A stretch of DNA of 64,000 bases from contig CP070695.1 of assembly GCA_020353515.1 (NCBI GenBank), positions 2,642,155 to 2,706,154 on the forward strand. Reading direction: 5' to 3'. Origin of the DNA: Candidatus Heimdallarchaeota archaeon. GTDB taxonomy: Archaea; Asgardarchaeota; Heimdallarchaeia; Hodarchaeales; Hodarchaeaceae. The translations under genes and the position numbers were made by a program. The number at the start of each line of letters is the position of its first letter. The first letter of the stretch is position 1. A model generated the notes under the pieces. It searched no databases, was not told the DNA's origin, and worked only from the letters and a program-made list of their open reading frames with translations. This document shows positions 31,530 through 52,346 of this stretch, piece after piece.

Positions 31530-31623
31530 GCGCTGATGGTCTAGTCTGGTCTAGGACTCCAGCCTTCCATTCTCATTGAAGAGAAGATAGCTGGCTACCC
31601 GGGTTCAAATCCCGGTCGGCGCA
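31530..31623 (+). tRNA. tRNA-Gly(TCC), 19-nt intron at 37/38 (31570-31588)
   Basis: GCGCTGA/TCGGCGC acceptor, CCAGC/GCTGG stem, TTCAAAT; BHB core CTTC/GAAG. Confidence 0.93.
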
Positions 31624-31643
31624 TTTTTTCTTTGTTATTAGCT

Positions 31644-32885
31644 TCATGAAGGGATATACCGTAAAATTGCACAAATCCCTCCAAAATTTTGTATTTGGCG
31701 TCCTTCTTCTGTTTGGGGATTGATTATTTCGATTGTGGCACCTGTTTTTTCGGCCATATCCCCCAAATCCATAATGAGGTCTTTTTGTTTAATTTCCCAC
31801 TTAATTACATTACACTGAGAACACTGTTGTTTTTGTAGCACAGATATATAATTTTCTACTTCATCTGGTTTTACTGTTTTCTCTTCTTTATAACCACAAT
31901 TCTGACATTCAGCTTCTATTCGTATTAAATCTATCCCTTTTGAGACTAACAAGATTTCAACAGCTCCCATCTGAAGGTTCTTTCGAACTTCCTTTTCTCC
32001 ATAATTGGCTTTTCCTACTGTTAATGCATCTAGGAATTGTTGAACCAGTCGTTTTTCCTCTATTAAGACAACTCCTTCTAAAATATCTTCGATTTCTGCA
32101 ACCAATTCATTTATTCCGCTCCTGTCTCCTCCATATCCTAAATCTTTAATTCCAACTACTTTAGCCTTTAAACGATTGTCGAAATATTCAACGACTTGAT
32201 CCTTTATTTGACCAGGTCCGCCAAGAATTACACCCTTTAATTCAATACGGTCATCTTCGATAAAGAACTGTTTCATATCGTCAGCAACACGTTTTAGAAA
32301 CCGTGCAACAACCTCTTCCCGCAATCTAGCAAAACGAACACTGCTCTGGCCTCCTTTCCGATGCTTTTTTGCTGCACCGCTTCGTGTGCTTTTCACAATC
32401 TCGATTTGATCCCCTTTCAATGTTGCTATTGTTGCTTTTGCACTATCGATAGCTAATAAAGCGTAGGTATCTTTCTCAACCAAACGATCAACTAGATACT
32501 CCACATGGAAGCGATTATCACAAACATATAGTTTACGTGATATCGGTTGTGGGGGTTCAAAAACATAGGATTCAATTTTATAATCTTTATGACCAGAATC
32601 CGCGGTTGCACCTGCAAATATTGCTATACCTGATTCTGGTGATTTATGACCGTAAAGCTTCAGCTTTCCAATTACATTGCGTAAAGCTGAAACAACATTT
32701 TTTTGTGTGAACTTACTTCGAATATTTGTGGCAGTACCTACCTCATCAGTTAATTCTTGAACAAAATCAGCAATTGCTCGGTCGGGAGGTACATATAAAG
32801 ATATTAAACAAGTGCTGCCATCAGGAGATTCCTTGTTCTGCAAGTCAGTGAGCATTCTTTCGAGTTTGTACTGTTCATAGCTCAT
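31644..32885 (-). CDS. prf1: Peptide chain release factor aRF1
   Basis: TNIRS, YVCDNRF, GGQS, zinc-ribbon insert, FGGICAILRY. Confidence 0.96.
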   Translation of the reverse strand: MSYEQYKLERMLTDLQNKESPDGSTCLISLYVPPDRAIADFVQELTDEVGTATNIRSKFTQKNVVSALRNVIGKLKLYGHKSPESGIAIFAGATADSGHKDYKIESYVFEPPQPISRKLYVCDNRFHVEYLVDRLVEKDTYALLAIDSAKATIATLKGDQIEIVKSTRSGAAKKHRKGGQSSVRFARLREEVVARFLKRVADDMKQFFIEDDRIELKGVILGGPGQIKDQVVEYFDNRLKAKVVGIKDLGYGGDRSGINELVAEIEDILEGVVLIEEKRLVQQFLDALTVGKANYGEKEVRKNLQMGAVEILLVSKGIDLIRIEAECQNCGYKEEKTVKPDEVENYISVLQKQQCSQCNVIKWEIKQKDLIMDLGDMAEKTGATIEIINPQTEEGRQIQNFGGICAILRYIPS

Positions 32886-32960
32886 TCCAAATCACACATG
32901 ATAATCTCGACAAAATTCCTCTGCAATTTATGATTTAAGTAATGTATAAAAAAACCTTAG

Positions 32961-33965
32961 TCAGGTTTGTATAATAGCTCGATATCTAGGATAATTCTTA
33001 ACAAATTCATTTATTGTAAATTGATTCCAGTCACAGATTGGGGAATATTCGACGAAATCTATACAGAGAAGAGCAGCGGAATTTTTATGACATAGATACA
33101 TTATTTTTTCCAGGGTAATCAATATCTCTGTAGTTTGTTTTTGTAAACTCTCCTTCTTTTCTTGCGTAAAAGTTTCTAAATTGGAGAAAAAACCCAATGA
33201 TTTTCCTAGAAGAAGAGGTGTTTTGAATTTTCTCTCTTCTTTTTTTTCAGCGAGTATCTGTTCTATAGTCATAGAATGGCCGATAATCTTGTTTCTATGC
33301 CAATAATTCGAGTAACCTAAAAAATCTCCTTGAGAAAGTTGATAATAATCCAAATCGATACTTAAATATATTTTTTTACCTTTCAACCAAGTATTGAGGT
33401 CACGGTTTAAACTCACATCACTAAAATCTGGCTTAATGAATGGAAAAAGACTGGAAGCCTCTTCATAATCTTGACTAGTATCAGCCCATCCTCCAAATAC
33501 AGAGGTAATGCTTGCTAGTTCCTTAGTAATCCATGCTCCATGTGGTTTTTGAGAATTGGATAAATCCAGGTGAGCATCAAGAGTAATAATGCCAAAATCA
33601 TCACCATGTTGTTGCCAGTAATCCTCAGCAATTAACCTGGAAGGTGCATGAGAAGTTGCAATGTTTATCATACGGCGTTTATCTTCCCATAAAAATGTGG
33701 ATATATCGTCATATCTTCTCGTGCCCAATATATTTTCATGGAAAGACCCCTTGACAAGATTTGGAAATTTTTGTATGAAACATGGATTAATGAGTCCAGA
33801 TAAATCAATATGTGGATACAGTCTTTTTAATTCTTGGATTTTTACCACCGCCCAGTATTCTTCAGGCCAGAATAATGTCATACCATAGGTTTGAGACGGA
33901 ATACATAGTGGAAATGGGCTTATATCTCTTGAATTACACTCAGAAGTAAAAGAATTAATAGTCAT
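32961..33965 (-). CDS. Divergent arginase/ureohydrolase-fold protein
   Basis: LDAHLD, YLSIDLD, DFVEYSP. Confidence 0.7.
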   Translation of the reverse strand: MTINSFTSECNSRDISPFPLCIPSQTYGMTLFWPEEYWAVVKIQELKRLYPHIDLSGLINPCFIQKFPNLVKGSFHENILGTRRYDDISTFLWEDKRRMINIATSHAPSRLIAEDYWQQHGDDFGIITLDAHLDLSNSQKPHGAWITKELASITSVFGGWADTSQDYEEASSLFPFIKPDFSDVSLNRDLNTWLKGKKIYLSIDLDYYQLSQGDFLGYSNYWHRNKIIGHSMTIEQILAEKKEERKFKTPLLLGKSLGFFSNLETFTQEKKESLQKQTTEILITLEKIMYLCHKNSAALLCIDFVEYSPICDWNQFTINEFVKNYPRYRAIIQT

Positions 33966-33971
33966 TACTTT

Positions 33972-34652
33972 TCATGTATTTTGAATAACTGTTCCAACAT
34001 TCTTTCCTTGGATTGCTTCCTTTATCTTATCTACGTTTTTAGGACAGATTATGATACGCATATTGGTGCGTTCGCAGATCTTAGCAGCAATTAGAGTAAA
34101 TGGCGCATTTGACCCAGCACCTAATGATAATGGAGTGACAATGTCATAGAATTCTTTATAGGTTAATTCTTTGTATTTTTTCGCATCAGGGAATTTATTC
34201 GGATCTTTATCATAAATCCCATCAACATTGGTCACGTTCACAAGAATGGGAGACCCAAATAAATCAGCTAAAATTGCTGCATCCTCATCAGTCTTAATTG
34301 CTGGTAAAAATCCTCCAGATATACCAATTTTTTGAAACTGAAGGTGTTCACTTAATTTTTTCACGGTTGTAGGCAATATTGGAGAACAGTGTCCTTTGAA
34401 ATAATAAGTTAACAACTGGGCATTAAGCCAAGTTGCTGCAATTCCCATATAGTCGCGTTCACCTTCAGTCAATCCTTCAGGAAGTCCTTTGATGTATTGA
34501 CGAGCTACCTTCCCACCACCACATACAATCATGAATTTATGTTGATGTACGAACTCTTTAACTACTATGGAAAAATCTGTAAGGAATTGGGTATCAATTT
34601 CGCCAGGGTTGATGATGCTTCCACCCAAAGATAATGTAATTAGAGATTTCAT
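33972..34652 (-). CDS. pyrH: Uridylate kinase
   Basis: SLGGS, VCGGGKVARQY, TNVDGIYDKDP. Confidence 0.95.
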   Translation of the reverse strand: MKSLITLSLGGSIINPGEIDTQFLTDFSIVVKEFVHQHKFMIVCGGGKVARQYIKGLPEGLTEGERDYMGIAATWLNAQLLTYYFKGHCSPILPTTVKKLSEHLQFQKIGISGGFLPAIKTDEDAAILADLFGSPILVNVTNVDGIYDKDPNKFPDAKKYKELTYKEFYDIVTPLSLGAGSNAPFTLIAAKICERTNMRIIICPKNVDKIKEAIQGKNVGTVIQNT

Positions 34653-34825
34653 TCTTCAACTCACCAGAATTTAAAGTGTTTTGTCTCCTTAATTCTCTTT
34701 AGTTTTTTCTCTCCTGATTATGAAAATATCCTAGCTATACTCCCTCAAGAATCTATACTTTTTACTTATTTTTTTCAAGAACTAGGGATTAGGCTTCCAT
34801 CTCTCCCTTAACAAATATGAAAATA

Positions 34826-34984
34826 TGCCGAGGGTGCGATTTGAACGCACGACAACTGGATATCCATCTCACAGATGAACTGGAGACTTCAGTCCAGCGC
34901 TAACGGGATTTGATACCATTATAAAATGGTGATACTCCCGGGATTCTCATTTACTCATTAAAGTAAACTCTAAGCTACCTCGGC
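34826..34984 (-). tRNA. tRNA-Phe(GAA) with three introns (15/16, 22/23, 37/38)
   Basis: Removing 34969-34943, 34934-34902 and 34886-34862 gives a canonical 74-nt cloverleaf. Confidence 0.85.
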
Positions 34985-35069
34985 AAACGTAAATACGAAG
35001 TAATTCAGTCATTGCTAGCAAGTGATAAAAATTTTTACCTGTTTTGTAGTAAAAAATCCAAGATTACTT

Positions 35070-35258
35070 TTAATCAGTACGTCGACGCCTATTGAAATTT
35101 TTATTTGTCCAAGAATATCGACGTAGTTTTGGGTTAGGAAACCCACAATAAGCACATTGGCGCTTACGTTTGTGGTATGAACGATTACCACATCTTCGAC
35201 ATTGCATATGAGTTCGTTTAGCAGTATGTTTTCCTCGTGATGCTGTTCCTTTTGTCAT
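35070..35258 (-). CDS. rpl37e: 50S ribosomal protein L37e
   Basis: MTKGT, CRRCG, CAYCGFP. Confidence 0.97.
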
Positions 35259-35306
35259 TTTTTACACCTCGGTTAATAATCAGGTTTTTGGCTATATTAG
35301 CTCTCC

Positions 35307-35540
35307 CTAGGGGGGAGAAATAAGAATTACATTGTCTCCTCGTAAGATAATATTTCCTAATGATTCTGTTACGGCTTCTTCCTCTTCCTTTGGAGGATAA
35401 ATCATTTCTGCATCTTCTAGGTATAAATTGAGATGGGGATCGTAACTCCGTAAGATTCCGCGAATTTCACGTTGTCCTCTCACTTTGAGAATAACCTTCT
35501 TGTTGAGAGCGGCTGTTAAGACATCTAAGGGTCTACTCAT
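35307..35540 (-). CDS. Sm-like (Lsm/SmAP1) protein
   Basis: RPLDVL, G.L.SYD.HLNL.L.DA, LRGDNV; conserved adjacency to L37e. Confidence 0.96.
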   Translation of the reverse strand: MSRPLDVLTAALNKKVILKVRGQREIRGILRSYDPHLNLYLEDAEMIYPPKEEEEAVTESLGNIILRGDNVILISPP

Positions 35541-35583
35541 AATAATTCACTTGCTAAAATTGGATATTTGTAACAAAAAGGAA

Positions 35584-35723
35584 TGCTCCGACCGGGATTT
35601 TCCAACCACAAACAGTGTGTTTGGGTTCTTTGAACCCGGGTCCTTCCGCTTAGATTCAATATTGAATTCAGCCAGATTCGGGGCGAAAGCCCGGAATGAT
35701 GGGCCGAGCTACACTATCGGAGC
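35584..35723 (-). tRNA. tRNA-Glu(TTC) with two non-canonical introns (about 44/45, 34 nt; 59/60, 31 nt)
   Basis: 5' end identical to tRNA-Glu(CTC) at 47342. Inserts at about 35676-35643 and 35628-35598; removal gives 75 nt. Confidence 0.82.
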
Positions 35724-35921
35724 AAATCCTCTTGGAATATAGCCCTTTATTGGCAATACAACCCCCTCTGCTTTAAATTAAAAAGTTTTGTTGATATATG
35801 TTTAATAATGAAACGGGTGCTAAAGGAGTGAAGCAGTATTTTTAGTTTAGTTAAAGATTAAATTAGAAACACTTTAAATCTGGATCAAACTTATTTCGTC
35901 AACGTAAGATTTGAGGATTAG

Positions 35922-36281
35922 GTGTTCATTAGAATGGTATCTTCTCACCGTCGTAAAAAACGAAAAAGATCTATAGAACGCCAAGATATCCAATTTCTAA
36001 CACAAGAAGCTATGACATTCTTCATCGAGGAGAGTATAAAAACACGTTCAACGAATCCTCTACAATCTCAAGAATTTTATCGAGCAGCTCGAAAAATTGG
36101 CAAACGTGGACGAATTCATCTTCCACATCAGTATCGAAATTATTTTTGTCGGTCGTGCAATTATCCAATAAGCATTAAAACGACAAGAATTCGTTTAAAT
36201 AGTAAAAAAAGGCAGATTCATTATTTTTGTTTTAACTGTAGGAAGGAGCAGCGATTTGGTTATAATAAGAGATCAGAATAA
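35922..36281 (+). CDS. rnp4: RNase P protein Rpp21 (Rnp4)
   Basis: FCRSC...RIRL...CFNC...RFGY. Confidence 0.85.
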   Translation: MFIRMVSSHRRKKRKRSIERQDIQFLTQEAMTFFIEESIKTRSTNPLQSQEFYRAARKIGKRGRIHLPHQYRNYFCRSCNYPISIKTTRIRLNSKKRQIHYFCFNCRKEQRFGYNKRSE

Positions 36282-36296
36282 GAAGGAGTAATAACC

Positions 36297-36632
36297 ATGT
36301 ATATTGCCATTTATACAACATTTGATAGTCCGGAGGAGGCAAAGAAATTTGCACACCTTTTACTTGAGAAAAAACTTGCAGCTTGTGTGAATCTAATTTC
36401 GGATGTCCAATCCATCTATCGTTGGAAAGGAAAGATTGAGGAAGCAAACGAAATAATCCTGTGGTGCAAGACACAAGATTTTTTGGTTGAAGAAATCCAA
36501 TCAATGATCCAAGAATCTCATTCATATGAATTACCAGCTTTTGTGGTCTATCCAATTCACTCAGGGAGCGAAAAATATCTAAAATGGATAGCTGATGAGA
36601 CTCAACCAGTTAAACATCGATCAAAACCTTAA
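36297..36632 (+). CDS. cutA: CutA divalent-cation tolerance protein
   Basis: KLAACVN, SIYRWKG, HSYELP, YLKWI. Confidence 0.95.
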   Translation: MYIAIYTTFDSPEEAKKFAHLLLEKKLAACVNLISDVQSIYRWKGKIEEANEIILWCKTQDFLVEEIQSMIQESHSYELPAFVVYPIHSGSEKYLKWIADETQPVKHRSKP

Positions 36633-37644
36633 ATCGATTATTAACTTCTTCTGTGCTTACATCAACATCAAGTGAGTCTTTTATCAAGTTAATATTGGTT
36701 TTAGTATGGTTAGATAAATAAGGAGTGAAAAAAGAACTAGAATTTGAAGCTAATGCCATGATAGGCAGAATTTGATCAGCTAAAAAAGGATCAACGGTAC
36801 TTCTACTCTTTATGGTAATAGAATAACGCTTGAACGCATTTTGGCCTACTTTTTCTGCAGGAAGCTTTCGTTCACCAACAAAATCACCGCTAATTACAGC
36901 TTTTTCAGCTTTTGAGTATATTAATACACCAGAACCAGGATTAGCTGAATTTACTGATTCTTTGAGAATCTTTGGATCAATATCTTGTTTTTCTAGAGCT
37001 GTTGCGATTGTATTCGCCTGTCTTTCTGCAACTCGTGCCCTTTGAAGGTGTTTTGACTCGAAGGATAAAATATTGGCTACTTTTGGTTTCTTAAATACTT
37101 CTAGATCCAACCCCTGTATATGAGAGGGAGAACGTAATTTAGCTGAAACACGTGCACCTCCTTTGGGATAAAATCCATGTCGAGAGATTTCAGTTTTAAG
37201 ATCAAAATTCATATTGCGAAAGATTTCCCAAGTGACATGATTTACATAAGGAATACTAGGTGCCCATTTTCCAAAAGTAGCCCCTCCCTGAAATTCAACT
37301 TCCAAATCATGATTCCTCACTCCAAGGATAGCTACCTGAAGAGATTGTAATATTAATCCCAGACTACCTGCTGTAGAAACATGAATTTTCAGGTTAGAAC
37401 GCCAAGAATTACAAGGTACAAAAATAATAGTTCCTGATCCGAGATTATCCCCATCTAAATCACCCCCACAAAATTCAGCTAATGCTCGGAGACCTACAAG
37501 ATGTTGCGTTTGGAGTCCTGGCTTCGGACGGTTTTTACGAATATTTACAATTTTTATAGATTCTTGTGTCACGAGAGCTAGAGACGTCGCTAATCGAAGA
37601 ATAGATCCTCCTCCTTCACCTACACTGCCATCATAAACATGCAT
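36610..37644 (-). CDS. rtcA: RNA 3'-terminal phosphate cyclase
   Basis: DGSVGEGGG.ILR, R.NRPKPGL..QH, GFYPKGG, LADQ, HTKTN. Confidence 0.95.
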   Translation of the reverse strand: MHVYDGSVGEGGGSILRLATSLALVTQESIKIVNIRKNRPKPGLQTQHLVGLRALAEFCGGDLDGDNLGSGTIIFVPCNSWRSNLKIHVSTAGSLGLILQSLQVAILGVRNHDLEVEFQGGATFGKWAPSIPYVNHVTWEIFRNMNFDLKTEISRHGFYPKGGARVSAKLRSPSHIQGLDLEVFKKPKVANILSFESKHLQRARVAERQANTIATALEKQDIDPKILKESVNSANPGSGVLIYSKAEKAVISGDFVGERKLPAEKVGQNAFKRYSITIKSRSTVDPFLADQILPIMALASNSSSFFTPYLSNHTKTNINLIKDSLDVDVSTEEVNNRFKVLIDV

Positions 37645-37725
37645 TTAGAAACCCCTTTGAAATAGAAGTGATAAATATGTTGAAAGAAAATATGGGTTAA
37701 TGATCTTTACTTCTAGTAAAATACG

Positions 37726-37938
37726 CTATCCTGCTCTCTCTTTTCGTTTGGGGCGTAATCTTGTTGAGCGACATCGTCGACATTTAGTTGCTCCTGGAGG
37801 ATTTCGGGCATAACACTTTCTACAGATCATCATATCAAGTAGTGCCTTACGAACAATGTCTCGTTTCTCAGGCTCGGTGATTGGCATTGTTTTAAGTTCC
37901 TTTTTAATGGTTAGCTTTGTATCAAGCTTTTCTTCCAT
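37726..37938 (-). CDS. rpl40e: 50S ribosomal protein L40e
   Basis: ICRKCYARNP..ATKCRRC...LRPK; AGGTGA SD at the upstream ATG. Confidence 0.95.
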   Translation of the reverse strand: MEEKLDTKLTIKKELKTMPITEPEKRDIVRKALLDMMICRKCYARNPPGATKCRRCRSTRLRPKRKERAG

Positions 37939-38556
37939 GGATCACCTTTCATTCAAGAACCAAAAGTTTTTCTCTGGAATTGGTGATGAAATATTATCAT
38001 TTTGAGGGATTTTACCTAAATTTAAATTCTTTCTTGTTAATTAGAAGCCAAAATTGCAGAAAAAATGTGGTTATGAGAATTTTCTCTATAATTGCCATAA
38101 AATGATCTAAAATCATCATTAATGATGAAATCATACCCCGTCTAAAACTTTAAGTTCAAATTGGTGAGCATGATGATATTTTTAATATCTCGTATGCAAA
38201 ATGCAGTAATGATGTTATAATTCCACTTTTTTCCTTCTCTACAAGTGAAAGTGATATGATTTATTTGGAAAACACACCTCCATGTTTTTTAATCTTCTAA
38301 GACTTAACAACCTTGCTTAGAATTCAAATCATGATTACAAGTTATATTATCTTCTCGTGACAATAGTTTGGTAATTCCCCCCGCCCCCCCCTATTTCGAG
38401 TGTAAAATATGAGAAAAAACGACAAAAATGAAGAATAAATCCAAATCGCAACCTCCATAACGATTAATTATCCCCGTACTATTTCCAGAAAACATTAATA
38501 AATAAGAAAAAACCAATAGTAACATGAAGCAAAAATTCGGACAAGGTGAGACCTCA

Positions 38557-38844
38557 ATGCAATATTACATGAGTGTATCTGAGATTCAAGATCGAGTTAG
38601 AACATTGATCAATCATTTCACTGGCAGTTATAGCGTGAAATCACCCTTTTTCAACCCAAAACTGGTAAATTCACTCCAAAAAATGGTGGATCCCAACCTT
38701 TTAAATAATGAAAAAGTAGCTGAAGAAATAATTACTACTTTTTTAAATTCCATAATTTTAGCTGGACAGTTGGGCATTGATATTGAAACAAAGGTGAATG
38801 AATACCTTATCCAACTTGAAAGAGAAGCTCTCTTTGCAATGTGA
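38557..38844 (+). CDS. Degenerate MazG-like (all-alpha NTP-PPase fold) protein
   Basis: VSEIQDRV...LAGQLGIDIE; GGTGA SD before ATG 38557. Confidence 0.5.
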   Translation: MQYYMSVSEIQDRVRTLINHFTGSYSVKSPFFNPKLVNSLQKMVDPNLLNNEKVAEEIITTFLNSIILAGQLGIDIETKVNEYLIQLEREALFAM

Positions 38845-38887
38845 CTTTTTGATAATATTCTATCTCACTAAATAGTATAGTGGTAAT

Positions 38888-40009: not shown

Positions 40010-40076
40010 TTACTATCAAGAAAGATCCAAACATAAAGTGAAAATAAAAATAGTGGAGCGAGAACTATTCATACAA

Positions 40077-41078: not shown

Positions 41079-41119
41079 AGAATATGTTTCGAGATTAATT
41101 CGATTATCTGAAAAGAGAG

Positions 41120-41192
41120 TGCGCCGACCGGGATTTGAACCCAGGTCACCTGTGTGGCAGACAGGAGTCTTACCAGGCTGGACTATCGGCGC
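41120..41192 (-). tRNA. tRNA-Gly(GCC), intron-less
   Basis: Canonical 73-nt cloverleaf. Confidence 0.96.
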
Positions 41193-41404
41193 TTGATATA
41201 ATAATATCATAAAAATGATTTACATTTGATTTTTCTTTAATAAATGCCTTTATTAGGAGAAGGATTGCATTTTATCCCCGTTTTCCTTCTTTTCATTAAT
41301 TTTTTCATTGATTCTCTTACTAATCCTGGTGAATTTTTATGAGGATTGATAATAATTTTTGACTAAATCTGAAACCTTCTTCTAATTGGATTTTATTGAG
41401 AATA

Positions 41405-42214
41405 TTATTCATTTATATTCTGAAGTTTAAGATAAATCCATTTCATTACTCCCATTAAGGTTGTTAGCTCGCGTCCCGTGACGTATCCTCGTGATAGAAC
41501 ATTTGAAAAAGCTTGTAATGCCACGTGATGTTTTTCAGGACGATATCCTGTAAAATTAATTACCTGTTCAAAATAGCTCTCTAATTGTTGTCGTTCTCTA
41601 AATGAAGCCGCTCTATGTTTTAATTTAACCTTAGAATTTTGGTAAATATCCTGGAACTTTTGAGAAAGAAAGTAAAGTATAATAGTAACAGCATGAGAGA
41701 GGTTCATGACAGGATAAGTGCTGTGAGTTGGAATAGTAACCAGTAAATCACATATACTGATCTCCTCATTAGATAAACCAGATGGTTCTCTTCCAAATAC
41801 AATTGCTATCTTATTGTAAGAAAATTCTTCTTTCAATAATCGTTCTGGAGGGATTGTTATCCTTTTCAGATTATAATCACTCCCAACTCGGGCTGTAGTG
41901 CCAATCATAAAATCGAAGCTTTCACGTACATCCTGAAGATCCATAACAAGCTGAGCTTGATTAATTATCATATCAGCACGGCGAGCAACAACCTTGATCT
42001 CTGGATTTGATAAGTCAAGAATAGGATTGGTTATTATAAGGTTTGAAAATCCAAAATTCATCATCACACGGGCAATATTACCTAAATTTTGAGGTTTGCT
42101 TGGTTGTACTAGAATTACAGACGCAAAATCCCATGTCATATTCTTTTTTAACGTATCCGAGTTAGAATTTTTGATCATTTTAATCATCTCAATGTAAAAA
42201 TGACTCCTATGCAT
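41405..42214 (-). CDS. trmJ: TrmJ-family SPOUT tRNA 2'-O-methyltransferase
   Basis: NLG.IAR.M.NFG, FGREPSGLSNEE, YPVMNLSHAV; true start probably downstream. Confidence 0.92.
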   Translation of the reverse strand: MHRSHFYIEMIKMIKNSNSDTLKKNMTWDFASVILVQPSKPQNLGNIARVMMNFGFSNLIITNPILDLSNPEIKVVARRADMIINQAQLVMDLQDVRESFDFMIGTTARVGSDYNLKRITIPPERLLKEEFSYNKIAIVFGREPSGLSNEEISICDLLVTIPTHSTYPVMNLSHAVTIILYFLSQKFQDIYQNSKVKLKHRAASFRERQQLESYFEQVINFTGYRPEKHHVALQAFSNVLSRGYVTGRELTTLMGVMKWIYLKLQNINE

Positions 42215-42437: not shown

Positions 42438-42599
42438 GCGGGGGTAGCCAAGCTAGGTCAAAGGCGGCATTAAATGGGCTAGATGATAGTTTAGCATATC
42501 ATAAATTAATGCGCTGTCCAAAGGCGCTGGACTTAAGATCGCTTTTGATAAGCAATCCAGTCATATAGATGTACGAGGGTTCAAATCCCTTCCCCCGCA
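42438..42599 (+). tRNA. tRNA-Leu(TAA) with two introns (D-loop 60 nt, about 42462-42521; 37/38, 17 nt, 42538-42554)
   Basis: GCGGGGG/CCCCCGC acceptor, long variable arm, perfect BHB CTTA/TAAG; removal gives 85 nt. Confidence 0.88.
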
Positions 42600-42619
42600 T
42601 TTATTCCTTGACAATCTGA

Positions 42620-43960
42620 TCAGGTGCCCTTTTCCCTTTCTCCGATAAGATATGTAGGACCAGTGTCGGTTACAAAGACAGTTAGAAACTGACCCAATGA
42701 CAGATCTCCATCCTCGATCACTATTGGTAAGTATGACGTATTTCTTCCAATATATTGATTAGCTAGCTTTCCAATTTCGTCAATTAACATAATTCCCTTC
42801 CAACCAATCCATTTCTTTAGCTCTCTTTGAGTAATCTCCCGAGTTAATCTGGTTAATTCCCTGCTTCTATTAGCTTTGACTTTTGTTGGTATCTTATCTG
42901 GTAATTTCGAAGCTAAAGTTTGTGGACGATCGGTATACTTCGATATATTTACAATAACAGGGTTTATTTCTCGTATTAGGTCTTTAGTTGCTTTGAAATC
43001 TTCTTTTGATTCTCCAGGAAATCCCACTATAATGTCAGTTGCTAATACCAATTCATCTATTTCTTGCCGTAATTGGGAAACGAGGTCAATGAAATATTGT
43101 TGTGTCTCTTTTCTTCTCATTTTTTGAAGGATTGAATTGGATCCAGACTGAATTGGTAAATGGAGAAAAGAAAAAACCTTAGGATTACGTATTTGTCGAA
43201 CTAGGGGCTTGAAAAATCTTTTCAATGTAATAGGAGTCATCATCCCTAATCGGATGAAAAACTCACCTTTTGAACGTGCGATAGAGTCAATGAGAGTTGG
43301 TATATATAGCTTAGGGGAGAGATCCCAACCATATACACCAGTATCTTGTGATGTGAGCCATATTTCTCTACTTCCCCTTTCAATTGCGGAGCCGACTTCA
43401 GCTAATATTGATTCTTGTGAGCGTGAGCGAACTGACCCCTTGATATTTCTAACAATGCAAAAAGTACAATTTCCTAAGCAACCTCGAGATATTTCAATAG
43501 TTGTAATTATAGGATTATATCGAAAACGATCTTCTTTATACATCTGTGACCAATCGTGGGGGGGTGTAGTCTTCGTCTCCAATACAGATTGGTTCTTTAA
43601 CAGCTCTGTAATCTGGTTAGCAACCTCTGGAAAAAGAATTTTTGCATGTGGTAAGTTCTCAGAAACCCAATCACGCATAACAACTGGTAAACAACCAGTT
43701 ATTATGATTTCTTTAGCTTGAGATAAAGATAATAACTTACTTTTCATTCTATGCTCTGTATTTTGCTTAACGACACATGTATTAACAATTATTACCTTAG
43801 CATCTTCTGCGAAATTGGTGAGAGTATATCCATGTCTTTGTAATATCCCTGTCAAGCCCTCTGCAATCGCACGATTTGCGCTACAACCATAATTTAGGAC
43901 ATGAATAGGATTTTTACTCTCTTCTATTGATTTCATTGCAGTACGATCCAAATTACTCAT
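42620..43960 (-). CDS. tRNA t6A37 methylthiotransferase (e-MtaB/CDKAL1 type)
   Basis: YGCSAN, NTC.VK, GC.P, CLGNCTFC radical-SAM motif, TRAM domain. Confidence 0.93.
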   Translation of the reverse strand: MSNLDRTAMKSIEESKNPIHVLNYGCSANRAIAEGLTGILQRHGYTLTNFAEDAKVIIVNTCVVKQNTEHRMKSKLLSLSQAKEIIITGCLPVVMRDWVSENLPHAKILFPEVANQITELLKNQSVLETKTTPPHDWSQMYKEDRFRYNPIITTIEISRGCLGNCTFCIVRNIKGSVRSRSQESILAEVGSAIERGSREIWLTSQDTGVYGWDLSPKLYIPTLIDSIARSKGEFFIRLGMMTPITLKRFFKPLVRQIRNPKVFSFLHLPIQSGSNSILQKMRRKETQQYFIDLVSQLRQEIDELVLATDIIVGFPGESKEDFKATKDLIREINPVIVNISKYTDRPQTLASKLPDKIPTKVKANRSRELTRLTREITQRELKKWIGWKGIMLIDEIGKLANQYIGRNTSYLPIVIEDGDLSLGQFLTVFVTDTGPTYLIGEREKGT

Positions 43961-44022
43961 CTGTGCAAAACCTTTTTTTAATGTCTGAGATCTAAATACA
44001 AGTGTGTGATTTATTCCTGAAG

Positions 44023-44172
44023 GTGTATGAGATTCGAACTGTCACTCTCTATGTAGAAGAAGAACTTATTGATGCTATGGCTGAATTAGTCAGAAATGGA
44101 AAATATCCAAATCGTTCTGAATTTGTACGTTCTGCCATTCGTGATCTCATAGACAAATATCAAGAGTCCTAG
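44023..44172 (+). CDS. Small ribbon-helix-helix protein (CdrS/CopG-like), missed by ORF track
   Basis: Hand translation: MYEIRTVTLYVEEELIDAMAELVRNGKYPNRSEFVRSAIRDLIDKYQES. Confidence 0.85.
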   Translation: MYEIRTVTLYVEEELIDAMAELVRNGKYPNRSEFVRSAIRDLIDKYQES

Positions 44173-44207
44173 AATTATTTTTAAGGGATAATCACCAATG
44201 TATTAGT

Positions 44208-45140: not shown

Positions 45141-45276
45141 GATTAAAGAAACTCCTGCTGTTCTTACATGATCATGATGTTTGTAATGGTATATTATAGT
45201 TAATCTAAAGAGAAAATCTAAATAAAAGTACAGATCACTCAACAATCAGCTCAAGAAAGATGAAGAGAGGAGCTTT

Positions 45277-46542
45277 TTGAATAAGAAGCAAAAAAACAAC
45301 ATTGAAACTAAGAAGAATAGTAAATGGTATTCAGGGAACGTTTTATTACTGGGTCTCGTATCTTTCTTTGCAGATATATCAGGAGAAATGATGACTCCTG
45401 TATTGCCCCTGTTTATTGCTGCATTAGGTGGCTCTAGTATAGTTGTTGGATTTATCGGGGGTTTAGGAGATGCTGTTGCGAATATTGTAAAAGTCATTTC
45501 TGGGTACTTAGCTGACAAAACAGCAAGAAGAAAACAGCTGATTGCAGTAGGATATGGCATTCCTTTTTTCGCAAAGCTTGGAATTGGCCTATCAAACTCT
45601 TGGGAACAAGTACTAATCTTGAAACCGACAGAAAGGCTGGGAAAGGGAATTCGAGGTGCTCCCCGCGATTCATTATTAGCTGATTCAATCCCTTTCGAGT
45701 TAAGAGGAAAAGCTTTTGGCTTCCATCGAATGATGGACACAGCAGGAGCCATTATTGGATCATTTCTAGCATTAATTATTGCTCTTCTCTTTTTCAATGT
45801 TTTAATTAGTGAATTAGAAATTCTCAAGATTATCATAATCATATCCGCCTTCATATCATTACTTGCAGTAATTCCGATATTTTTTATCTCTGATTCAGCG
45901 GAACTAACACCTAAAGGAGAGCAACGAAAAATAAGTTTAGTCCAAAATCTTAAAGAATTGCCGAAGAGCTATTATAAATTTTTAATTGTCTCAATAATCT
46001 TTGGTTTAGCTAATTTTACTATCCTCCTGTTTATTCTACATTCAAAAAATGTTGTTCTAGGAATAGATGAGACATCACCCCCTCTTGTCTTAATAACAAT
46101 CCCAATTATTATTTTTATCTGGTTCAATATAGTTTATACGGTTTTATCAATTCCTTTTTGTGATTGGTCTTACAAGTATTGGCGGAAACCAGTTTTTGCA
46201 ATTGGTCTCGCTCTATTTGCCATTACATGTTTTGGTTTCCTATTCACTACGATTTTTATCCTGCTTTTCTTATTCTTTGGAATATATGGAGCCTTTAATG
46301 CAGCAACTGATGGAATCCAAAAAGCATTTGCAGTAGATCTACTTCCCCAAGATCTTAAAGGAACGGGAATAGGATTATTGCAGACTTTAATGGGGTTTGC
46401 AGGCATTCTTGGTGGATTTATTGCTGGTTACCTATATAATTTTGAAGCTAATCTTGCGTTTATTTATGGAGGGATTATGACAATCATTGCATTAGTTTTA
46501 TTGCTGCTAACCACCTTCACGTCTAAAGAGAGGGCTTCTTAA
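45277..46542 (+). CDS. MFS transporter
   Basis: GYLADK..RRK motif A, ERLGKGIRGAPRD; about 12 TM helices. Confidence 0.93.
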   Translation: MNKKQKNNIETKKNSKWYSGNVLLLGLVSFFADISGEMMTPVLPLFIAALGGSSIVVGFIGGLGDAVANIVKVISGYLADKTARRKQLIAVGYGIPFFAKLGIGLSNSWEQVLILKPTERLGKGIRGAPRDSLLADSIPFELRGKAFGFHRMMDTAGAIIGSFLALIIALLFFNVLISELEILKIIIIISAFISLLAVIPIFFISDSAELTPKGEQRKISLVQNLKELPKSYYKFLIVSIIFGLANFTILLFILHSKNVVLGIDETSPPLVLITIPIIIFIWFNIVYTVLSIPFCDWSYKYWRKPVFAIGLALFAITCFGFLFTTIFILLFLFFGIYGAFNAATDGIQKAFAVDLLPQDLKGTGIGLLQTLMGFAGILGGFIAGYLYNFEANLAFIYGGIMTIIALVLLLLTTFTSKERAS

Positions 46543-46632
46543 AAAATATGATTTTAATATTAGTATGATCTGTTTAACGTAAGAATTTATCCTCATATTA
46601 GTATGAGCTCCAAAACGGAAGCAAAATTTAAG

Positions 46633-46737
46633 CGGGCACAGAGGGATTTGAACCCCCGACCAACAGGTATCTTCAGTCAAATTCTTAAAATATGAACATT
46701 AAAAGCCTGTCGCTCTACCTGGCTGAGCTATGCGCCC
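46633..46737 (-). tRNA. tRNA-Lys(TTT), 31-nt intron at 37/38 (46699-46669)
   Basis: GGGCGCA/TGTGCCC acceptor, ACAGG/CCTGT stem, BHB core CTTT/GAAG. Confidence 0.93.
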
Positions 46738-46746
46738 TTAGGTTTC

Positions 46747-46854
46747 TGGCGCCCCGGTCGGGATTTGAACCCGAGTCGGATGGGTTCGGCAGACTATCAG
46801 AGTTGATAAGGCTTTGACAGCCATCAATGCTAGGCCAGACTACACCACCGGGGC
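46747..46854 (-). tRNA. tRNA-Asp(GTC), 30-nt intron at 37/38 (46814-46785), CCA encoded
   Basis: GCCCCGG/CCGGGGC-G-CCA, GATGG/CCATC stem. Confidence 0.93.
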
Positions 46855-47041
46855 TAGATACCAAGTGAAGGTCTTAATTACCTTAGCGATAAATAAGCGT
46901 CCACGTCTGTCCCTTCTTTCTCAATTTTTTAAATTGATCCTCTCTTAAAGAAGTTCCTGCATAACCTTAAAATCCTAGAGCCATTGCAAGGAAAATTGCC
47001 GAATACCCCTTCGTGTAAGGTGATTACCCCTAATTATATGT

Positions 47042-47262
47042 GCTGGGGTGGCTTAAACGATAATAATCATTTTATCGTGGCGAAGCCTGGTATAATCATA
47101 CTGTCTATAGTCAGAATGCCGAGAGCGCGGGACTCATAATCTGAGAACAATTCTCATAGCGTTCTAAGGGCACGAATCTCGCTTTCAGACGAGACATCCC
47201 GAAGTCGGGGGTTCGAATTTAGGTAAAATGCATTTTATCAAACGAAAAGCCCCCCCCCAGCA
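47042..47262 (+). tRNA. Elongator tRNA-Met(CAT) with four introns (14/15, 21/22, 37/38, 59/60)
   Basis: Exons 47042-55, 47085-94, 47123-38, 47196-217 and 47249-62 join to a 76-nt cloverleaf; each junction folds as BHB or relaxed BHB. Confidence 0.87.
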
Positions 47263-47341
47263 TGTTTATTTCAATCTAACAATTTCAGGAAATAATGTAT
47301 AGAGAAAATCAATATAACAGAAGACATGGTAATCATTATAT

Positions 47342-47448
47342 GCTCCGATAGTGTAGCTCGGCCCATCATTCAGGGCTCTCAATGAAAGTCTATTAATCAG
47401 ATTTTCAGGAGCTCCCCTGTGACCCGGGTTCAAATCCCGGTCGGAGCA
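47342..47448 (+). tRNA. tRNA-Glu(CTC), 32-nt intron at 37/38 (47382-47413)
   Basis: CAGGG/CCCTG stem, BHB core CTCT/GGAG, 9-bp outer helix. Confidence 0.94.
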
Positions 47449-47499
47449 TTCCTTATCCTTCGATAGAATCCAGAATGAGAATTTTTTCTATTTATATAC

Positions 47500-48864
47500 T
47501 TACCCAAATAATCCCTCAAAACCAGGTGGGATCCCACCAGGAGGAGCCCCACGGCGTCCTCGCATTTTTCGCATCGCTTTTAATGATTTTGAAGCTTGGT
47601 TAAACTGGTTTAAAAGGAGTTTTACTTCTTGAGGGGAAGTACCTGATCCTTGTGCTATCCTTTGAATACGTCTACCTTTAATTATTCGAGCATTATCCAA
47701 TTCTTCCTCTGTCATTGAATTACAAATTGCGATAAATCGTTTCACATTTCTTTGACCTTCTGCTTCTAATATGGGTTGTTGACCCGTTATAGCACCAACT
47801 CCAGGTATTTTGGAAACCAATTTTCCTATAGATGATTGCTTACTCGCATTCTCCATTTGGATTTTAAAATGTCGTAGAGTTAATTTTCCTTTTTTGAAAG
47901 CATCGCGAAGTTCAGCCGTGTCTTGCTCATCAAATGCTTCGTTAACACTTTCTATTAAACCCTCGATATCACCAAGCCCTAAGAGAGATCCAACAAATCG
48001 AGTTGGATTAAACTCCTCTAAATCTTGAATTTTTTCCCCGTCACCATAAAATCGAATTTTTGCTCCTGTTACAGCAACAGCAGAGACAGCCCCTCCACCT
48101 TTAGCGGAACCATCCATCTTTGTTAAAATGATTGACCCAATAGGGGTTGTACGATTAAAAGCATCTGCTTGTGCTTGAGCTTGTTGACCTATTGTAGCAT
48201 CAATCACTAGGATAATTTCTGTGGGTTTAGCTATTTTAGCAATTTCTTGCATTTCTTTTAATAAAGCTTTTTCCTCTTTATGTCGTCCTGCTGTATCTAG
48301 TAATATGAGATTGATATTCCTTTTCTCTTTAAAATAGCTTAATCCTTTTTTAATTATTTTTGAAGCTTTTTTCTCCTTTTCATCCCCAAAAACCTCAACA
48401 TTAATGGGAGCAAGATATTGTTGAAGTTGAGCTAAAGCACCGGGTCTAAACGTATCACCTCCTATAACTCCAACGGAATATCCCCTTTTCTGGAAATAAT
48501 TTGCAGTTTTCCCGATACATGTTGTTTTACCTGATCCTTGGATACCGATGAACATTAAAATAGATAAATCATCAGGATTTAGGCGTAAAGGAGTAAATTT
48601 CTTACCCAATAGGCTGGCCAGTTCATCATAGATCACTTTCAGAGTATAATCTTTACGACTAATAGCCATAGGTAAGATGTCTTTGAGAGCTCTCTCACGT
48701 ACTCTTTCAGTAACATTTAGTACTAAATCAAGGTTAACATCAGCTGCAAGCAGAGCGTTTTCTAAATCATTAATCAATTCATTGATCAATCTCTCATCAA
48801 CAATGGGTGCACCACGAATTTTCATGATTGTTTTACGTAATGATGAGCTTAAAGTATCTAGCAT
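47500..48864 (-). CDS. srp54: Signal recognition particle protein SRP54
   Basis: ALLAADV, GIQGSGKTT, DTFRPGA, DTAGRH, TKMDG, SMT.EE. Confidence 0.98.
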   Translation of the reverse strand: MLDTLSSSLRKTIMKIRGAPIVDERLINELINDLENALLAADVNLDLVLNVTERVRERALKDILPMAISRKDYTLKVIYDELASLLGKKFTPLRLNPDDLSILMFIGIQGSGKTTCIGKTANYFQKRGYSVGVIGGDTFRPGALAQLQQYLAPINVEVFGDEKEKKASKIIKKGLSYFKEKRNINLILLDTAGRHKEEKALLKEMQEIAKIAKPTEIILVIDATIGQQAQAQADAFNRTTPIGSIILTKMDGSAKGGGAVSAVAVTGAKIRFYGDGEKIQDLEEFNPTRFVGSLLGLGDIEGLIESVNEAFDEQDTAELRDAFKKGKLTLRHFKIQMENASKQSSIGKLVSKIPGVGAITGQQPILEAEGQRNVKRFIAICNSMTEEELDNARIIKGRRIQRIAQGSGTSPQEVKLLLNQFNQASKSLKAMRKMRGRRGAPPGGIPPGFEGLFG

Positions 48865-49013
48865 CTATATTAAACTCCATTGGTTTTTCTATTTCTTTGA
48901 AGACGATATAGGACCCTCATTACACAAGAGATCTGTTTGTTTGAACCTCGGTGAATGTATGCAATAGTTCTGAAGTGAGTTATTCATCTTTACTGGTAAC
49001 TGATTAATAAATT

Positions 49014-49619
49014 TTATTCCAAGGGCATTTTATCATTAATGATAAAATTTGGTTTAATGTCATCTAAAAGATAATTGAGAATTGTTATCGTCTGAGAGGT
49101 TAAATATTCAGTGGATCCTAGGGAGAATTTTGGAAACTTCGAAAAATACTGGTAAATTTCTTCTTGAAATCCTAATTGATCACCGAGTAAGAATGAATCA
49201 AACTCATTAAGTAGATTAAGAGATTGCTCTCCCATTCTATCGATAACGACAAATTTCTGCTTCTTTAGACATTGTTCTAGGCTGGATGAATAAAATTTTA
49301 TCCCAGGATACGAATGACCGTTAAACACGTGTTTCAATACTCCTGCTATCGCTCTTTCATCTGGATTTATCCCACGAACTTCTTCACCCCAAATTTCCAA
49401 AATTTTATTGTTAATCTGAAAATAAATAATAAAGATAACATCTTTCCTAAAATCATTGGAGAGGAAGAAAGCTGCATTAATACACCGACACAGAACATCT
49501 AACCGCCCATATCCTGTTAATGAATTTAAAGAAAGGTGTTTAGAAGTATCAACTGTGTTTGAAATCACAAAAAACCATCTCATGATAATTTTTCTGCTCC
49601 TAAAATTCTGGTTGACCAA
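49014..49619 (-). CDS. trmY: tRNA pseudouridine(54)-N1 methyltransferase
   Basis: GRLDVLCRC, NPDER, F.LGD..G, SLG. Confidence 0.92.
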   Translation of the reverse strand: MVNQNFRSRKIIMRWFFVISNTVDTSKHLSLNSLTGYGRLDVLCRCINAAFFLSNDFRKDVIFIIYFQINNKILEIWGEEVRGINPDERAIAGVLKHVFNGHSYPGIKFYSSSLEQCLKKQKFVVIDRMGEQSLNLLNEFDSFLLGDQLGFQEEIYQYFSKFPKFSLGSTEYLTSQTITILNYLLDDIKPNFIINDKMPLE

Positions 49620-49786
49620 AATTAACTATTTAATTGCAGCTAAATTCATTTATTTGTCTGCTTATTTATTCTATAGAAAATAAGTAAAATAACTTCATGA
49701 AAATGAGATATTTAGATAAATTACTTTTCAAAATAATTAGATTTAATCCTTCTATTCCTTTTCATTACTAATGAAGGGTTTTATAA

Positions 49787-51142
49787 ATGGAAACATCAAT
49801 CTTTAATAAGGCTAAGCACCTAATTACGCATGTCCATTGCTGTAATTCCTGCCTAGGTCGGCAATTTGGCAATTTATTGTCAGGATTATCAAATAAAAAA
49901 CGAGGTGAAGCATTAAAAATTATACTCTTGATGGAATGGGAAAATATTCATCGATTGTTAAAAAAAGAACCTCCAAAATCATCATCACTGTTATCTGAAG
50001 ACTTCAATATTGGAAAAATGTCAATTCAACGTTTTTTTTCAGAGATTCAATCTGCAAGTACTCATTGTGAAATTTGTCAAGGGAATCTTTATCCCCAAAA
50101 ACTAAAGGAATTAGCCAACAGTGCTCTAGAAGCGCTCAATGAATATGAATTTTCAACATTTCTTGTGGGAAGTCAGTTCCCTCCGTCAATAATAGATAAA
50201 GAAGATACAATTCGAAGTACCTATAATCTCGAATTTGGAGAATCAATTAAATCAGAGTTTAACCGTGAAATTGGTAAAATACTACAAGAACAACTAACCC
50301 TTGCAACAGTTGACTTCAAAACACCTGACATTGTCATAACATTTAATCTCCGTAGTGATCAGATAACCATTAAAACGAATCCTTTATTCATCCTTGGGAG
50401 ATATAGAAAATTCGAACGCGGAATTCCACAATCAAAATGGTTCTGTCGTGAATGTAGAGGGAAGGGTTGTGAGTATTGTAATTTCACGGGGAAAATGTAC
50501 CAAGAATCTGTGGAAGAATATATTTCTGAGCCTTTCCTTTCTGCAGCTAAAGGTACAGCCAGTAAATTTCATGGTTCAGGTCGAGAAGATATTGATGCCC
50601 GTATGTTAGGAACTGGAAGACCATTTATTCTTGAAATTTCAGAACCAAGGAAGAGAAACTTAAATCTCACCGAAATCATGGAGATAGTAAACGAAAAAGC
50701 AGGAGGGAAGGTTGAAATTGACATCGAAGGAATAACCAACAGATCTAAAGTTCGTGAACTTAAGACACGTTCAAGTAGGAATGCAAAAGGTTATCGAGTG
50801 ATTATTTCCTTAGATCCCCCCATAAAGCTTGAAGAACTGGAAATCTTAGCCATTGCAGATGAATTTTCAGATTTACTTATCCAACAGCGAACTCCATTAC
50901 GAGTAGTTCATCGTCGAGCTGATAAGATTCGATCTAGAAAAGTTCAAACATTTCGAATTGAGAAATTTGAACCACATCAATTGACTGCTTATGTGGTTTG
51001 TGAGGGAGGGTTATATGTGAAAGAGTTAATCAGTGGGGATGAGGGGCGAACTCAGCCGAATCTTTCTGAGCGTCTTAATACTACTGCTGTGGTTACTCAA
51101 CTTGATGTCATAGAAGTTTTGAGTGAGAAGGACTCTTTTTAA
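49787..51142 (+). CDS. pus10: tRNA pseudouridine(54/55) synthase Pus10
   Basis: GRYRK..R.IPQ, GREDIDARMLG.GRPF, QRTP.RV.HRR, G.YVKELISGD.GRT.P. Confidence 0.97.
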   Translation: METSIFNKAKHLITHVHCCNSCLGRQFGNLLSGLSNKKRGEALKIILLMEWENIHRLLKKEPPKSSSLLSEDFNIGKMSIQRFFSEIQSASTHCEICQGNLYPQKLKELANSALEALNEYEFSTFLVGSQFPPSIIDKEDTIRSTYNLEFGESIKSEFNREIGKILQEQLTLATVDFKTPDIVITFNLRSDQITIKTNPLFILGRYRKFERGIPQSKWFCRECRGKGCEYCNFTGKMYQESVEEYISEPFLSAAKGTASKFHGSGREDIDARMLGTGRPFILEISEPRKRNLNLTEIMEIVNEKAGGKVEIDIEGITNRSKVRELKTRSSRNAKGYRVIISLDPPIKLEELEILAIADEFSDLLIQQRTPLRVVHRRADKIRSRKVQTFRIEKFEPHQLTAYVVCEGGLYVKELISGDEGRTQPNLSERLNTTAVVTQLDVIEVLSEKDSF

Positions 51143-51288
51143 TACTATTTCTAGAAAGATTCTTCAATTTTAAAAGAAATCCAAAAATAGGTTAAGAAAA
51201 CTCCTTTCTAATGGTGTCACTGAAGCCTAAAGCCCTCTCTTGGACTTAAAAACCAAAGAATAGCTAAAATACTTGGAGAAAAGACAGA

Positions 51289-51585
51289 ATGGTAAAGAAA
51301 TCAAAAGGTGTGAACTTTAGGACACGGAAACTTTTTTCTAAACATCCAAGGAAACGAGGTTTACCTTCTTTATCCCGAACATTGGCAAATTATGAGGTGA
51401 ATTCCAAAGTAAACATTGTAATTGAACCCAGTATCCAAAAAGGACGACCTCATAGAAGATTTCATGGAAAGACTGGAATTGTTTTGGAAAAACGAGGCCA
51501 AGCTTATTTAATCCAAGTTTCAGATGGAAATAGCCTCAAAAAAGTAATTGCTCGACCCGAACATCTGAAAGCACAATTGCAATGA
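51289..51585 (+). CDS. rpl21e: 50S ribosomal protein L21e
   Basis: KGRPHRRFHGKTG, RPEHL. Confidence 0.97.
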   Translation: MVKKSKGVNFRTRKLFSKHPRKRGLPSLSRTLANYEVNSKVNIVIEPSIQKGRPHRRFHGKTGIVLEKRGQAYLIQVSDGNSLKKVIARPEHLKAQLQ

Positions 51586-51619
51586 AGAACTGATAGATTT
51601 GTAGGATTGGTAATTAAGA

Positions 51620-52012
51620 ATGGTTAGAAAAGTCCTGGATGAGAAACCAATTACTTTAGGGCAAGTATATGAACTCTTGAAAATACGGGAAGAAACAGGT
51701 ATAAATTATGTGCAACGGGTCACAGCACAGCATGCTGAAAAACTCTCACGCGATGCTGCCTTTTCAGAGGAAGCTATTCAGACAATAAAGGAAGAATTTG
51801 ATCTTCCTCGAATACTAGTTGTCCAAATATTAAATATAAATCCTAAGACATCAATTGATGTTAAAGCAATAACTGGTGATCGACTTTCTGACGATCAAAT
51901 AGATCAACTTCTTTCACGTTATACAGAGTATGTTACTTTGGCTGCAACAAAAGACAAGGAAATTTCTGAGGAAGAAGAGGAAGAAGTGGAAGAAGGATTT
52001 GAAGATCTCTAA
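51620..52012 (+). CDS. rpo4: RNA polymerase subunit Rpo4 (RpoF)
   Basis: EKPITL..V..LL, YVQR, QI.NI.P; conserved position after L21e. Confidence 0.85.
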   Translation: MVRKVLDEKPITLGQVYELLKIREETGINYVQRVTAQHAEKLSRDAAFSEEAIQTIKEEFDLPRILVVQILNINPKTSIDVKAITGDRLSDDQIDQLLSRYTEYVTLAATKDKEISEEEEEEVEEGFEDL

Positions 52013-52210
52013 TATTTTTCACTCATTTTCTTTAAGAGAGTACTAATAGATAACTATTCATCGCTTGACTGATCTCTTCTGAAAGGATTACATATTCTGC
52101 AGCTTAATTCTACTTGAAATTTCTCCATCTTGTTGTACCAACTAAAATTAAATTTCAAAAGTAGTAAAAAGAATAAAGAAAATCATTGAGTTAAAGTACG
52201 ATTCTAATAA

Positions 52211-52346
52211 AGGGACGTGGCTTAGTTTGGAAAAGTTCCCGGTTCGGGTCCGTAAGCCGATTTCGGCTGGCGGCGTAACTCCGGGAGATCGGGGGTTCAA
52301 AGTTATTACGGCTGTGCGCCGTGTTATGAAAATCCCTCCGTCCCTA
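52211..52346 (+). tRNA. tRNA-Pro(CGG) with two introns (37/38, 52249-52279; 59/60, 52302-52332)
   Basis: AGGGACG/CGTCCCT acceptor; T-loop BHB core TTCA/TGAA. Confidence 0.88.

Follow-up and report, generated by a model that had tools for sequence, protein, structure and literature searches.

Multiply interrupted tRNA genes and their probable splicing in a Hodarchaeales-type Asgard genome

We analyzed a 64,000-nt stretch (hereafter the window) of a genome deposited as Candidatus Heimdallarchaeota archaeon (GenBank assembly GCA_020353515.1, contig CP070695.1, positions 2,642,155 to 2,706,154 of the forward strand). Its segment 31530-52346 contains ten tRNA genes, nine of which are interrupted by a total of 17 introns of 17-61 nt, as located by a combined search for bulge-helix-bulge (BHB) geometry and cloverleaf structure. 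Judged from their sequences and from those of their relatives, the ten loci are very probably functional archaeal tRNA genes, the introns of which are of BHB type and are spliced by proteins. A heavy load of non-canonical tRNA introns is already known in Asgard archaea, and the genome described here is a further, well-documented example of the Hodarchaeales type.

Interrupted tRNA genes of the window

Candidate introns were enumerated by BHB geometry, in which a 4-bp helix lies between two 3-nt bulges and each bulge is cut behind its second base. All combinations of up to four removals were then scored for their fit to the cloverleaf, the acceptor ends being fixed. Eight introns were located at 37/38, and nine at non-canonical positions: the D-loop or D-arm holds five of these, the site 59/60 three, and 44/45 one. 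The original prediction, made from the letters of the window alone, had claimed 17 introns in these ten genes; both this total and its count for each gene were reproduced exactly, as were its nine non-canonical sites and its remark that many central helices carry a single mismatch (8 of 17). The gene structures, read directly from the sequence, are as follows (window coordinates; the length and tRNA position of each intron in brackets).

31530-31623, plus strand: tRNA-Gly(TCC), one intron at 31570-31588 (19 nt, 37/38)
34826-34984, minus strand: tRNA-Phe(GAA), introns at 34943-34969 (27 nt, 15/16), 34902-34934 (33 nt, 22/23) and 34862-34886 (25 nt, 37/38)
35584-35723, minus strand: tRNA-Glu(TTC), introns at 35643-35676 (34 nt, 44/45, variable loop) and 35598-35628 (31 nt, 59/60)
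41120-41192, minus strand: tRNA-Gly(GCC), intron-free, found by ARAGORN, Rfam 60.8 bits
42438-42599, plus strand: tRNA-Leu(TAA), introns at 42461-42521 (61 nt, 3' end of the D-loop, about 20b/21) and 42538-42554 (17 nt, 37/38)
46633-46737, minus strand: tRNA-Lys(TTT), one intron at 46669-46699 (31 nt, 37/38), Rfam 58.1 bits
46750-46854, minus strand: tRNA-Asp(GTC), one intron at 46785-46814 (30 nt, 37/38), Rfam 43.3 bits
47042-47262, plus strand: tRNA-Met(CAT), introns at 47056-47084 (29 nt, 14/15), 47095-47122 (28 nt, 21/22), 47139-47195 (57 nt, 37/38) and 47218-47248 (31 nt, 59/60)
47342-47448, plus strand: tRNA-Glu(CTC), one intron at 47382-47413 (32 nt, 37/38), Rfam 46 bits
52211-52346, plus strand: tRNA-Pro(CGG) with A1-U72, introns at 52249-52279 (31 nt, 37/38) and 52302-52332 (31 nt, 59/60)

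When the introns were removed in silico, the products of all ten genes formed between 19 and 21 of the 21 stem pairs, and each was recognized by ARAGORN as a full-length tRNA with the expected anticodon. All 21 pairs are formed in the spliced tRNA-Met(CAT) and in the spliced tRNA-Gly(TCC). The Gly-TCC gene, the intron of which has the BHB H4/h5/h'3, scores 50.9 bits with the Rfam tRNA model in the raw window. Given the unspliced genes singly, ARAGORN called five correctly, missed four, and miscalled Leu-TAA as Lys; in the raw window it found one of the ten (Gly-GCC), and the Rfam tRNA model found five, each with at most one insertion, in the anticodon loop. This low yield on raw DNA is a limit of the tools and not an absence of genes. 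In tRNA-Phe(GAA), exon 2 is only 8-9 nt long. The G+C content of the exons is 55-64%, and that of the introns is mostly 23-43%. All ten genes are collinear in cis, and none has a split or circularly permuted arrangement. The pattern of tRNA introns exceeds chance.

Conservation and turnover among relatives

The SRP54 protein encoded in the window is 77-93% identical to proteins from metagenome-assembled genomes (MAGs) labelled Hodarchaeota, Heimdallarchaeota (B3_Heim) or Promethearchaeota, about 50% identical to those of Thorarchaeota, and 41-44% identical to those of Thermoproteota and Desulfurococcales. A taxonomy look-up placed Hodarchaeota within Promethearchaeati (the Asgard group). By this marker gene the genome, a single 4.94-Mb contig with 36% G+C, is Asgard of the Hodarchaeales type and not Thermoproteales. 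The Asgard lineage suspected in the original prediction is therefore borne out by SRP54, and the Thermoproteales origin that it had named as the counter-case is contradicted.

Across 8-19 related genomes, the exons of these genes barely vary and the introns diverge. The Lys-Asp-Met-Glu cluster adjacent to SRP54, for which syntenic loci were collected from 14 related MAGs, is conserved, and tRNA-Lys(TTT) is kept beside SRP54 in the relatives. In an eight-genome alignment of the Met gene the exons are nearly invariant and the four introns diverge, with compensatory changes in their hairpins (ACGATAA/TTATCGT to GCAATAA/TTATTGC). The Phe gene was matched in 20 of 23 searched genomes of the order and, within the genus as delimited in GTDB, in 19 of 21 other genomes. 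The same three Phe introns were modelled in the closest species, four in some species and two in others, and one in a genome of another family. Covariation was also observed directly. Across 17 Phe precursors, pairing in the assigned BHB helices and intron hairpins amounts to 87.7%, compared with 34-41% when the partner strand is slid, and 12 pairs show compensatory double changes, a number reached in none of 500 shuffles. All 19 orthologues of Glu-TTC carry the 44/45 intron, the central helix of which, CCCG/CGGA here, is a perfect CTCG/CGAG in relatives.

Several introns are cleanly absent from some of the related genomes, which are given below by L numbers. Met intron 2 is missing from L006, L009, and L012, and Met intron 4 from L009 and L012; Phe intron 1 is missing from L054 and L055; and the 59/60 intron of Glu-TTC is precisely absent from the five genomes L049-L053, which have an ordinary TTCAAAT loop there. 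These absences fall at the predicted boundaries or at most 2 nt from them. Additional introns also occur in relatives, namely a D-arm intron of Glu-TTC in some of the others, a 59/60 intron of Asp in L009 and L012, and a 59/60 intron of Glu-CTC in most relatives, together with a D-loop intron of Glu-CTC in L006. Intron numbers among L006, L009, L012, and L049-L055 range from 1 to 3 for Glu-CTC, 1 to 2 for Asp, 2 to 4 for Met, 1 to 4 for Phe, and 2 to 4 for Glu-TTC. The conservation of exons, the divergence of introns, and the clean absences are evidence that is independent of the BHB motif. Within the genus, species differ through gains and losses of introns.

A recent transposition of introns between tRNA genes was considered and rejected, the best similarity between two introns of the genome being 0.25 and the maximum among shuffled sequences 0.29. 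It is conceivable, if rather improbable in our judgment, that the 59/60 introns (about 29-36 nt) have arisen repeatedly in at least 11 tRNA families of this genus, with no similarity between copies, through targeted insertion or selection. The insertion route might consist of reverse splicing by EndA and RtcB followed by reverse transcription. Under selection, 59/60 introns could be favored for disrupting the attachment sites of integrating elements in the T-arm. The lineage is usually placed close to eukaryotes.

Predicted splicing and its alternatives

The presence of the splicing enzymes was observed directly. The EndA family (PF01974/PF02778) is represented by exactly two genes, at about 1,349,000 and 1,316,700 of the genome, and a gene for RtcB is located at 4,083,311-4,084,588. 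The EndA α protein (183 aa) matches A. pernix EndA α end to end (3p1z_B, E 1.9e-43) with an intact Tyr/His/Lys triad, and its stretch GIRKPKSP aligns without gaps to DVEKPRGA of A. pernix, placing a Lys on K44. K44 and the crenarchaeal specific loop of the A. pernix enzyme have been shown experimentally to underlie broad substrate specificity, with K44 acting in RNA recognition (PMC3241643). The β paralogue (212 aa) lacks the catalytic His and keeps the Tyr and Lys positions. When aligned to models of fused EndAs, α corresponds to the catalytic C-terminal half and β to the structural N-terminal half. By these alignments, the enzyme is of the two-gene (αβ)2 type with an L1 loop, which Kaneta et al. 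(2018; PMC5829648) have assigned to Asgard archaea. A catalytic α with the crenarchaeal loop and a His-less β also agree with the heterotetrameric EndA that the original prediction had linked to dense, relaxed introns. Homology to solved heterotetramers indicates that the two proteins likely assemble in this way and cleave the non-canonical introns.

We propose that each gene would be transcribed as a long precursor. For every intron, the flanking exon would pair with the 3' end of the intron over 4 bp, with a 3-nt bulge on either side of this helix, and a hairpin of the intron would usually extend the structure. EndA, as (αβ)2 with the crenarchaeal loop on its catalytic subunit and a correspondingly relaxed specificity, would cut in both bulges, and RtcB would join the exons.

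In the search, a BHB was accepted with at least three of four central pairs and a flanking helix of at least 2 bp. This filter is passed by about 0.5% of arbitrary combinations of position and length (for example 125 of about 24,000 in the Met precursor) and by 16 of the 17 introns, the exception being the 44/45 intron of Glu-TTC; since the motif itself served as the search filter, such statistics are partly circular, and this is one of several points that weigh against splicing as proposed. The central helix has four of four pairs in nine introns, but one mismatch in the other eight, and the outer helix is missing on one side in several. A C27-A43 mismatch remains in the spliced Glu-TTC. In Phe intron 1 and Met intron 2 the cuts given by the BHB rule lie 2 nt off those indicated by intron-less orthologues. 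For Phe intron 1 the strict BHB gives 34944-34968 (25 nt), while orthologues without the intron read AGCCCGGGAG, which fits 27 nt at 15/16, a register that keeps a relaxed BHB. Met intron 2 would be 28 nt long by its BHB (GGTA/TGCC), which leaves a D-loop of 11 nt, but 30 nt long by comparison with orthologues that lack it. The boundaries of the D-loop introns are thus uncertain by 1-2 nt. Moreover, one further gene each for Glu-TTC and Leu-TAA, atypical and free of introns, is located outside the window. Splicing as such, comprising transcription, nucleotide-exact cleavage sites, ligation, and the order of excision, is what we infer from the observations given above.

These second copies, together with the failure of standard tools on 4-5 of the ten genes, might suggest that the genes with several inserts are decaying pseudogenes, with inserts that are never removed and decoding left to other genes or to wobble. 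However, the exons hardly change between species with SRP54 differences of up to 22%, whereas the inserts diverge and their helices covary. The spliced products keep nearly all stem pairs, and most interrupted genes of the genome, including Phe, Met, and Pro-CGG, are the only ones for their anticodon. We therefore regard decay as exceedingly unlikely. The imperfection of about half of the central helices, and the two D-loop introns with comparative boundaries 2 nt from the BHB rule, could instead indicate that the inserts are removed without EndA and RtcB, by self-splicing or another nuclease, and that the BHB-like folds are incidental. But inserts of 17-61 nt are far too short for group I or group II ribozymes, the cores of which take hundreds of nucleotides, and an Rfam scan of the window gave no match to intron ribozyme families, so that the introns do not qualify as group I or II. 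By BHB geometry, moreover, each of the eight introns in the anticodon loop falls exactly at 37/38, the central helices show conservation or covariation, and the genome encodes RtcB and an EndA of predicted broad specificity. Removal by such other means is very unlikely.

An origin of the inserts in assembly or binning has also to be weighed, as the genome is probably a MAG or derived from an enrichment, with a CheckM-type contamination of 7.4%. Yet it consists of one contig, and more than 20 independent assemblies contain the same interrupted genes in conserved synteny, which makes an artefact barely conceivable. Protein-mediated splicing of BHB-type introns from functional tRNA genes is the reading that we adopt.

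Genome-wide tRNA set and comparison with known systems

For the whole genome, the search was seeded with an acceptor stem and a T-arm possibly split by an intron, and Rfam hits and a motif search were added. The only genes gained with relaxed seeds were Ala-TGC and a second CAT gene, and models of long false seeds with a score below 31 were discarded. Two candidates, a fragment like a tRNA 3' half at about 1,470,434 and another hit, at 1,302,929 (genome coordinates, as for all loci in this section unless marked otherwise), were judged not to be tRNA genes. The automatic models of Ala-GGC, Trp, Ser-TGA, Leu-CAA, Leu-TAG, His, and the initiator tRNA-Met were wrong or ambiguous and were re-read by eye, so the totals are estimates (± 3 introns): about 51 collinear genes cover all 46 standard anticodon classes, about 36 of them (71%) are interrupted, 13 have two or more introns, and about 54 introns (about 1.06 per gene) comprise about 25 at 37/38 and about 29 elsewhere. 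A 59/60 intron is present in eight genes, and intron lengths peak at 30-31 nt. The standard tRNA model, by comparison, found 28 genes above threshold. These 28 genes, against 46 anticodon classes in the intron-aware search, support the suggestion of the original prediction that introns may explain missing tRNAs in MAGs. Standard hits numbered 27 in a 99%-complete congener and 38 in closed genomes from a different family of this class; only as a proxy, these counts suggest a higher frequency of hidden tRNAs in this genus. No shared promoter motif was obvious by eye upstream of 50 of the tRNA genes.

Thirty of the approximately 51 genes lie at 2.60-2.83 Mb, in 4.6% of the chromosome, which accounts for the tRNA richness of the window; the window is part of a tRNA-dense region and not a special locus. 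Tandem genes in this region (Arg TCT-CCT-CCG, Asp-Lys, Leu-CAG/Ser-CGA, and CAT/Asn) are probably co-transcribed. The part of the chromosome covered by the window is rich in tRNA and translation functions, and among its tRNA genes are also located (window coordinates):

31644-32885, minus strand: aRF1
36610-37644, minus strand: RtcA, RNA 3'-terminal phosphate cyclase
42620-43960, minus strand: MtaB-like tRNA ms2t6A methylthiotransferase
47500-48864, minus strand: SRP54
49787-51142, plus strand: Pus10, tRNA pseudouridine(54/55) synthase

Weak matches to C/D-box snoRNAs at 42001-42072 and 36855-36926 of the window, both on the minus strand (snoR9, E 0.34; SNORD65, E 0.56), may be archaeal C/D sRNAs or chance.

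Some tRNA genes elsewhere in the genome are unusual. The atypical intron-less genes are the second copy of Glu-TTC (156715-156786), an Ile-TAT with a poor T-stem (387279-387351), and a bacterial-looking class II Leu-TAA (2114959-2115043); these three may be cargo of mobile elements or acquired by transfer. In tRNA-Ala GGC and TGC (2603956-2604060 and 2772221-2772325) the T-loop reads TCCAAAT, with C at the expected U55, a base that is nearly universal in tRNA and is a target of Pus10. An intron in the T-loop was found in tRNA-Thr(TGT) (about 4009300-4009470, minus strand). The initiator tRNA-Met (4003220-4003314, minus strand) has an 18-nt intron at 37/38, its CCA end is encoded, and the 5' strand of its T-stem is longer by one base (GGATGG opposite CCTCC).

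The novelty implied in the original prediction is not supported, as both the phenomenon and the EndA type have been published for Asgard archaea (PMC5829648; PMC11291895; bioRxiv 10.64898/2026.10.13.758758). For the same reason, its expected bearing on the origin of eukaryotic tRNA splicing leaves current knowledge unchanged. What is gained is a complete intron-aware tRNA set for a closed Hodarchaeales-type genome, which shows why Asgard MAGs seem short of tRNAs. The most interesting remainder is the turnover of introns at the species level, together with the recurrent 59/60 site. Clean presence and absence alleles within one genus are good material for studying how such introns arrive, which is an open problem according to the 2026 census (bioRxiv 10.64898/2026.10.13.758758).

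In complete genomes of Atabeyarchaeia and Freyarchaeia, introns were reported in 92-95% of tRNA genes, often at non-canonical positions and with several in over half of the genes (Valentin-Alvarado 2024, PMC11291895). A survey of 90 Asgard genomes described D-arm introns that tRNAscan-SE misses, repeated gains of introns at BHB sites without copying from gene to gene, and a pair of EndA paralogues in most of the genomes (Goswami 2026 preprint, bioRxiv 10.64898/2026.10.13.758758). Our genome resembles these cases in its short canonical and non-canonical introns, with 2-5 in many genes and BHB-compatible boundaries, in its two-paralogue EndA, in D-arm introns that escape standard annotators, and in repeated gains without similarity between introns. 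However, it is of the Hodarchaeales type (Heimdallarchaeia), the T-loop site 59/60 is especially frequent, and the intron load, moderately high at about 1.06 per gene with about 71% of genes interrupted, is lower than the 2.2 per gene and 97% of the published focal families.

Similarly, about 70% of tRNA genes are interrupted in Thermoproteales (Sugahara 2008; Marck and Grosjean 2003, cited in PMC11291895), where several introns per gene, D-arm, variable-loop, and T-loop sites, a relaxed BHB, and a heterotetrameric EndA with the specific loop (predicted in our case) are likewise found. Unlike Thermoproteales, the present genome belongs to the Asgard phylum, has a mesophile-like G+C content of 36%, and gives no sign of recent intron transposition between genes. 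Its EndA is like that of A. pernix (PDB 3P1Z/3AJV; Hirata 2011, PMC3241643) in the conserved triad and loop lysine and in a separate non-catalytic paralogue, but the β subunit resembles A. pernix β (E 0.003) less in sequence than it does the structural units of the M. kandleri and ARMAN-2 EndAs (5x89, 4fz2). The catalytic domain is also homologous to that of the eukaryotic tRNA splicing endonuclease (TSEN), with Sen34 and Sen2 matched at E of about 1e-8 to 1e-7, and the logic of cutting and ligating is the same. Eukaryotic nuclear tRNA introns are found almost only at 37/38, a site measured from the mature domain. In contrast, 9 of the 17 introns described here lie off 37/38 and must be recognized locally through the BHB.

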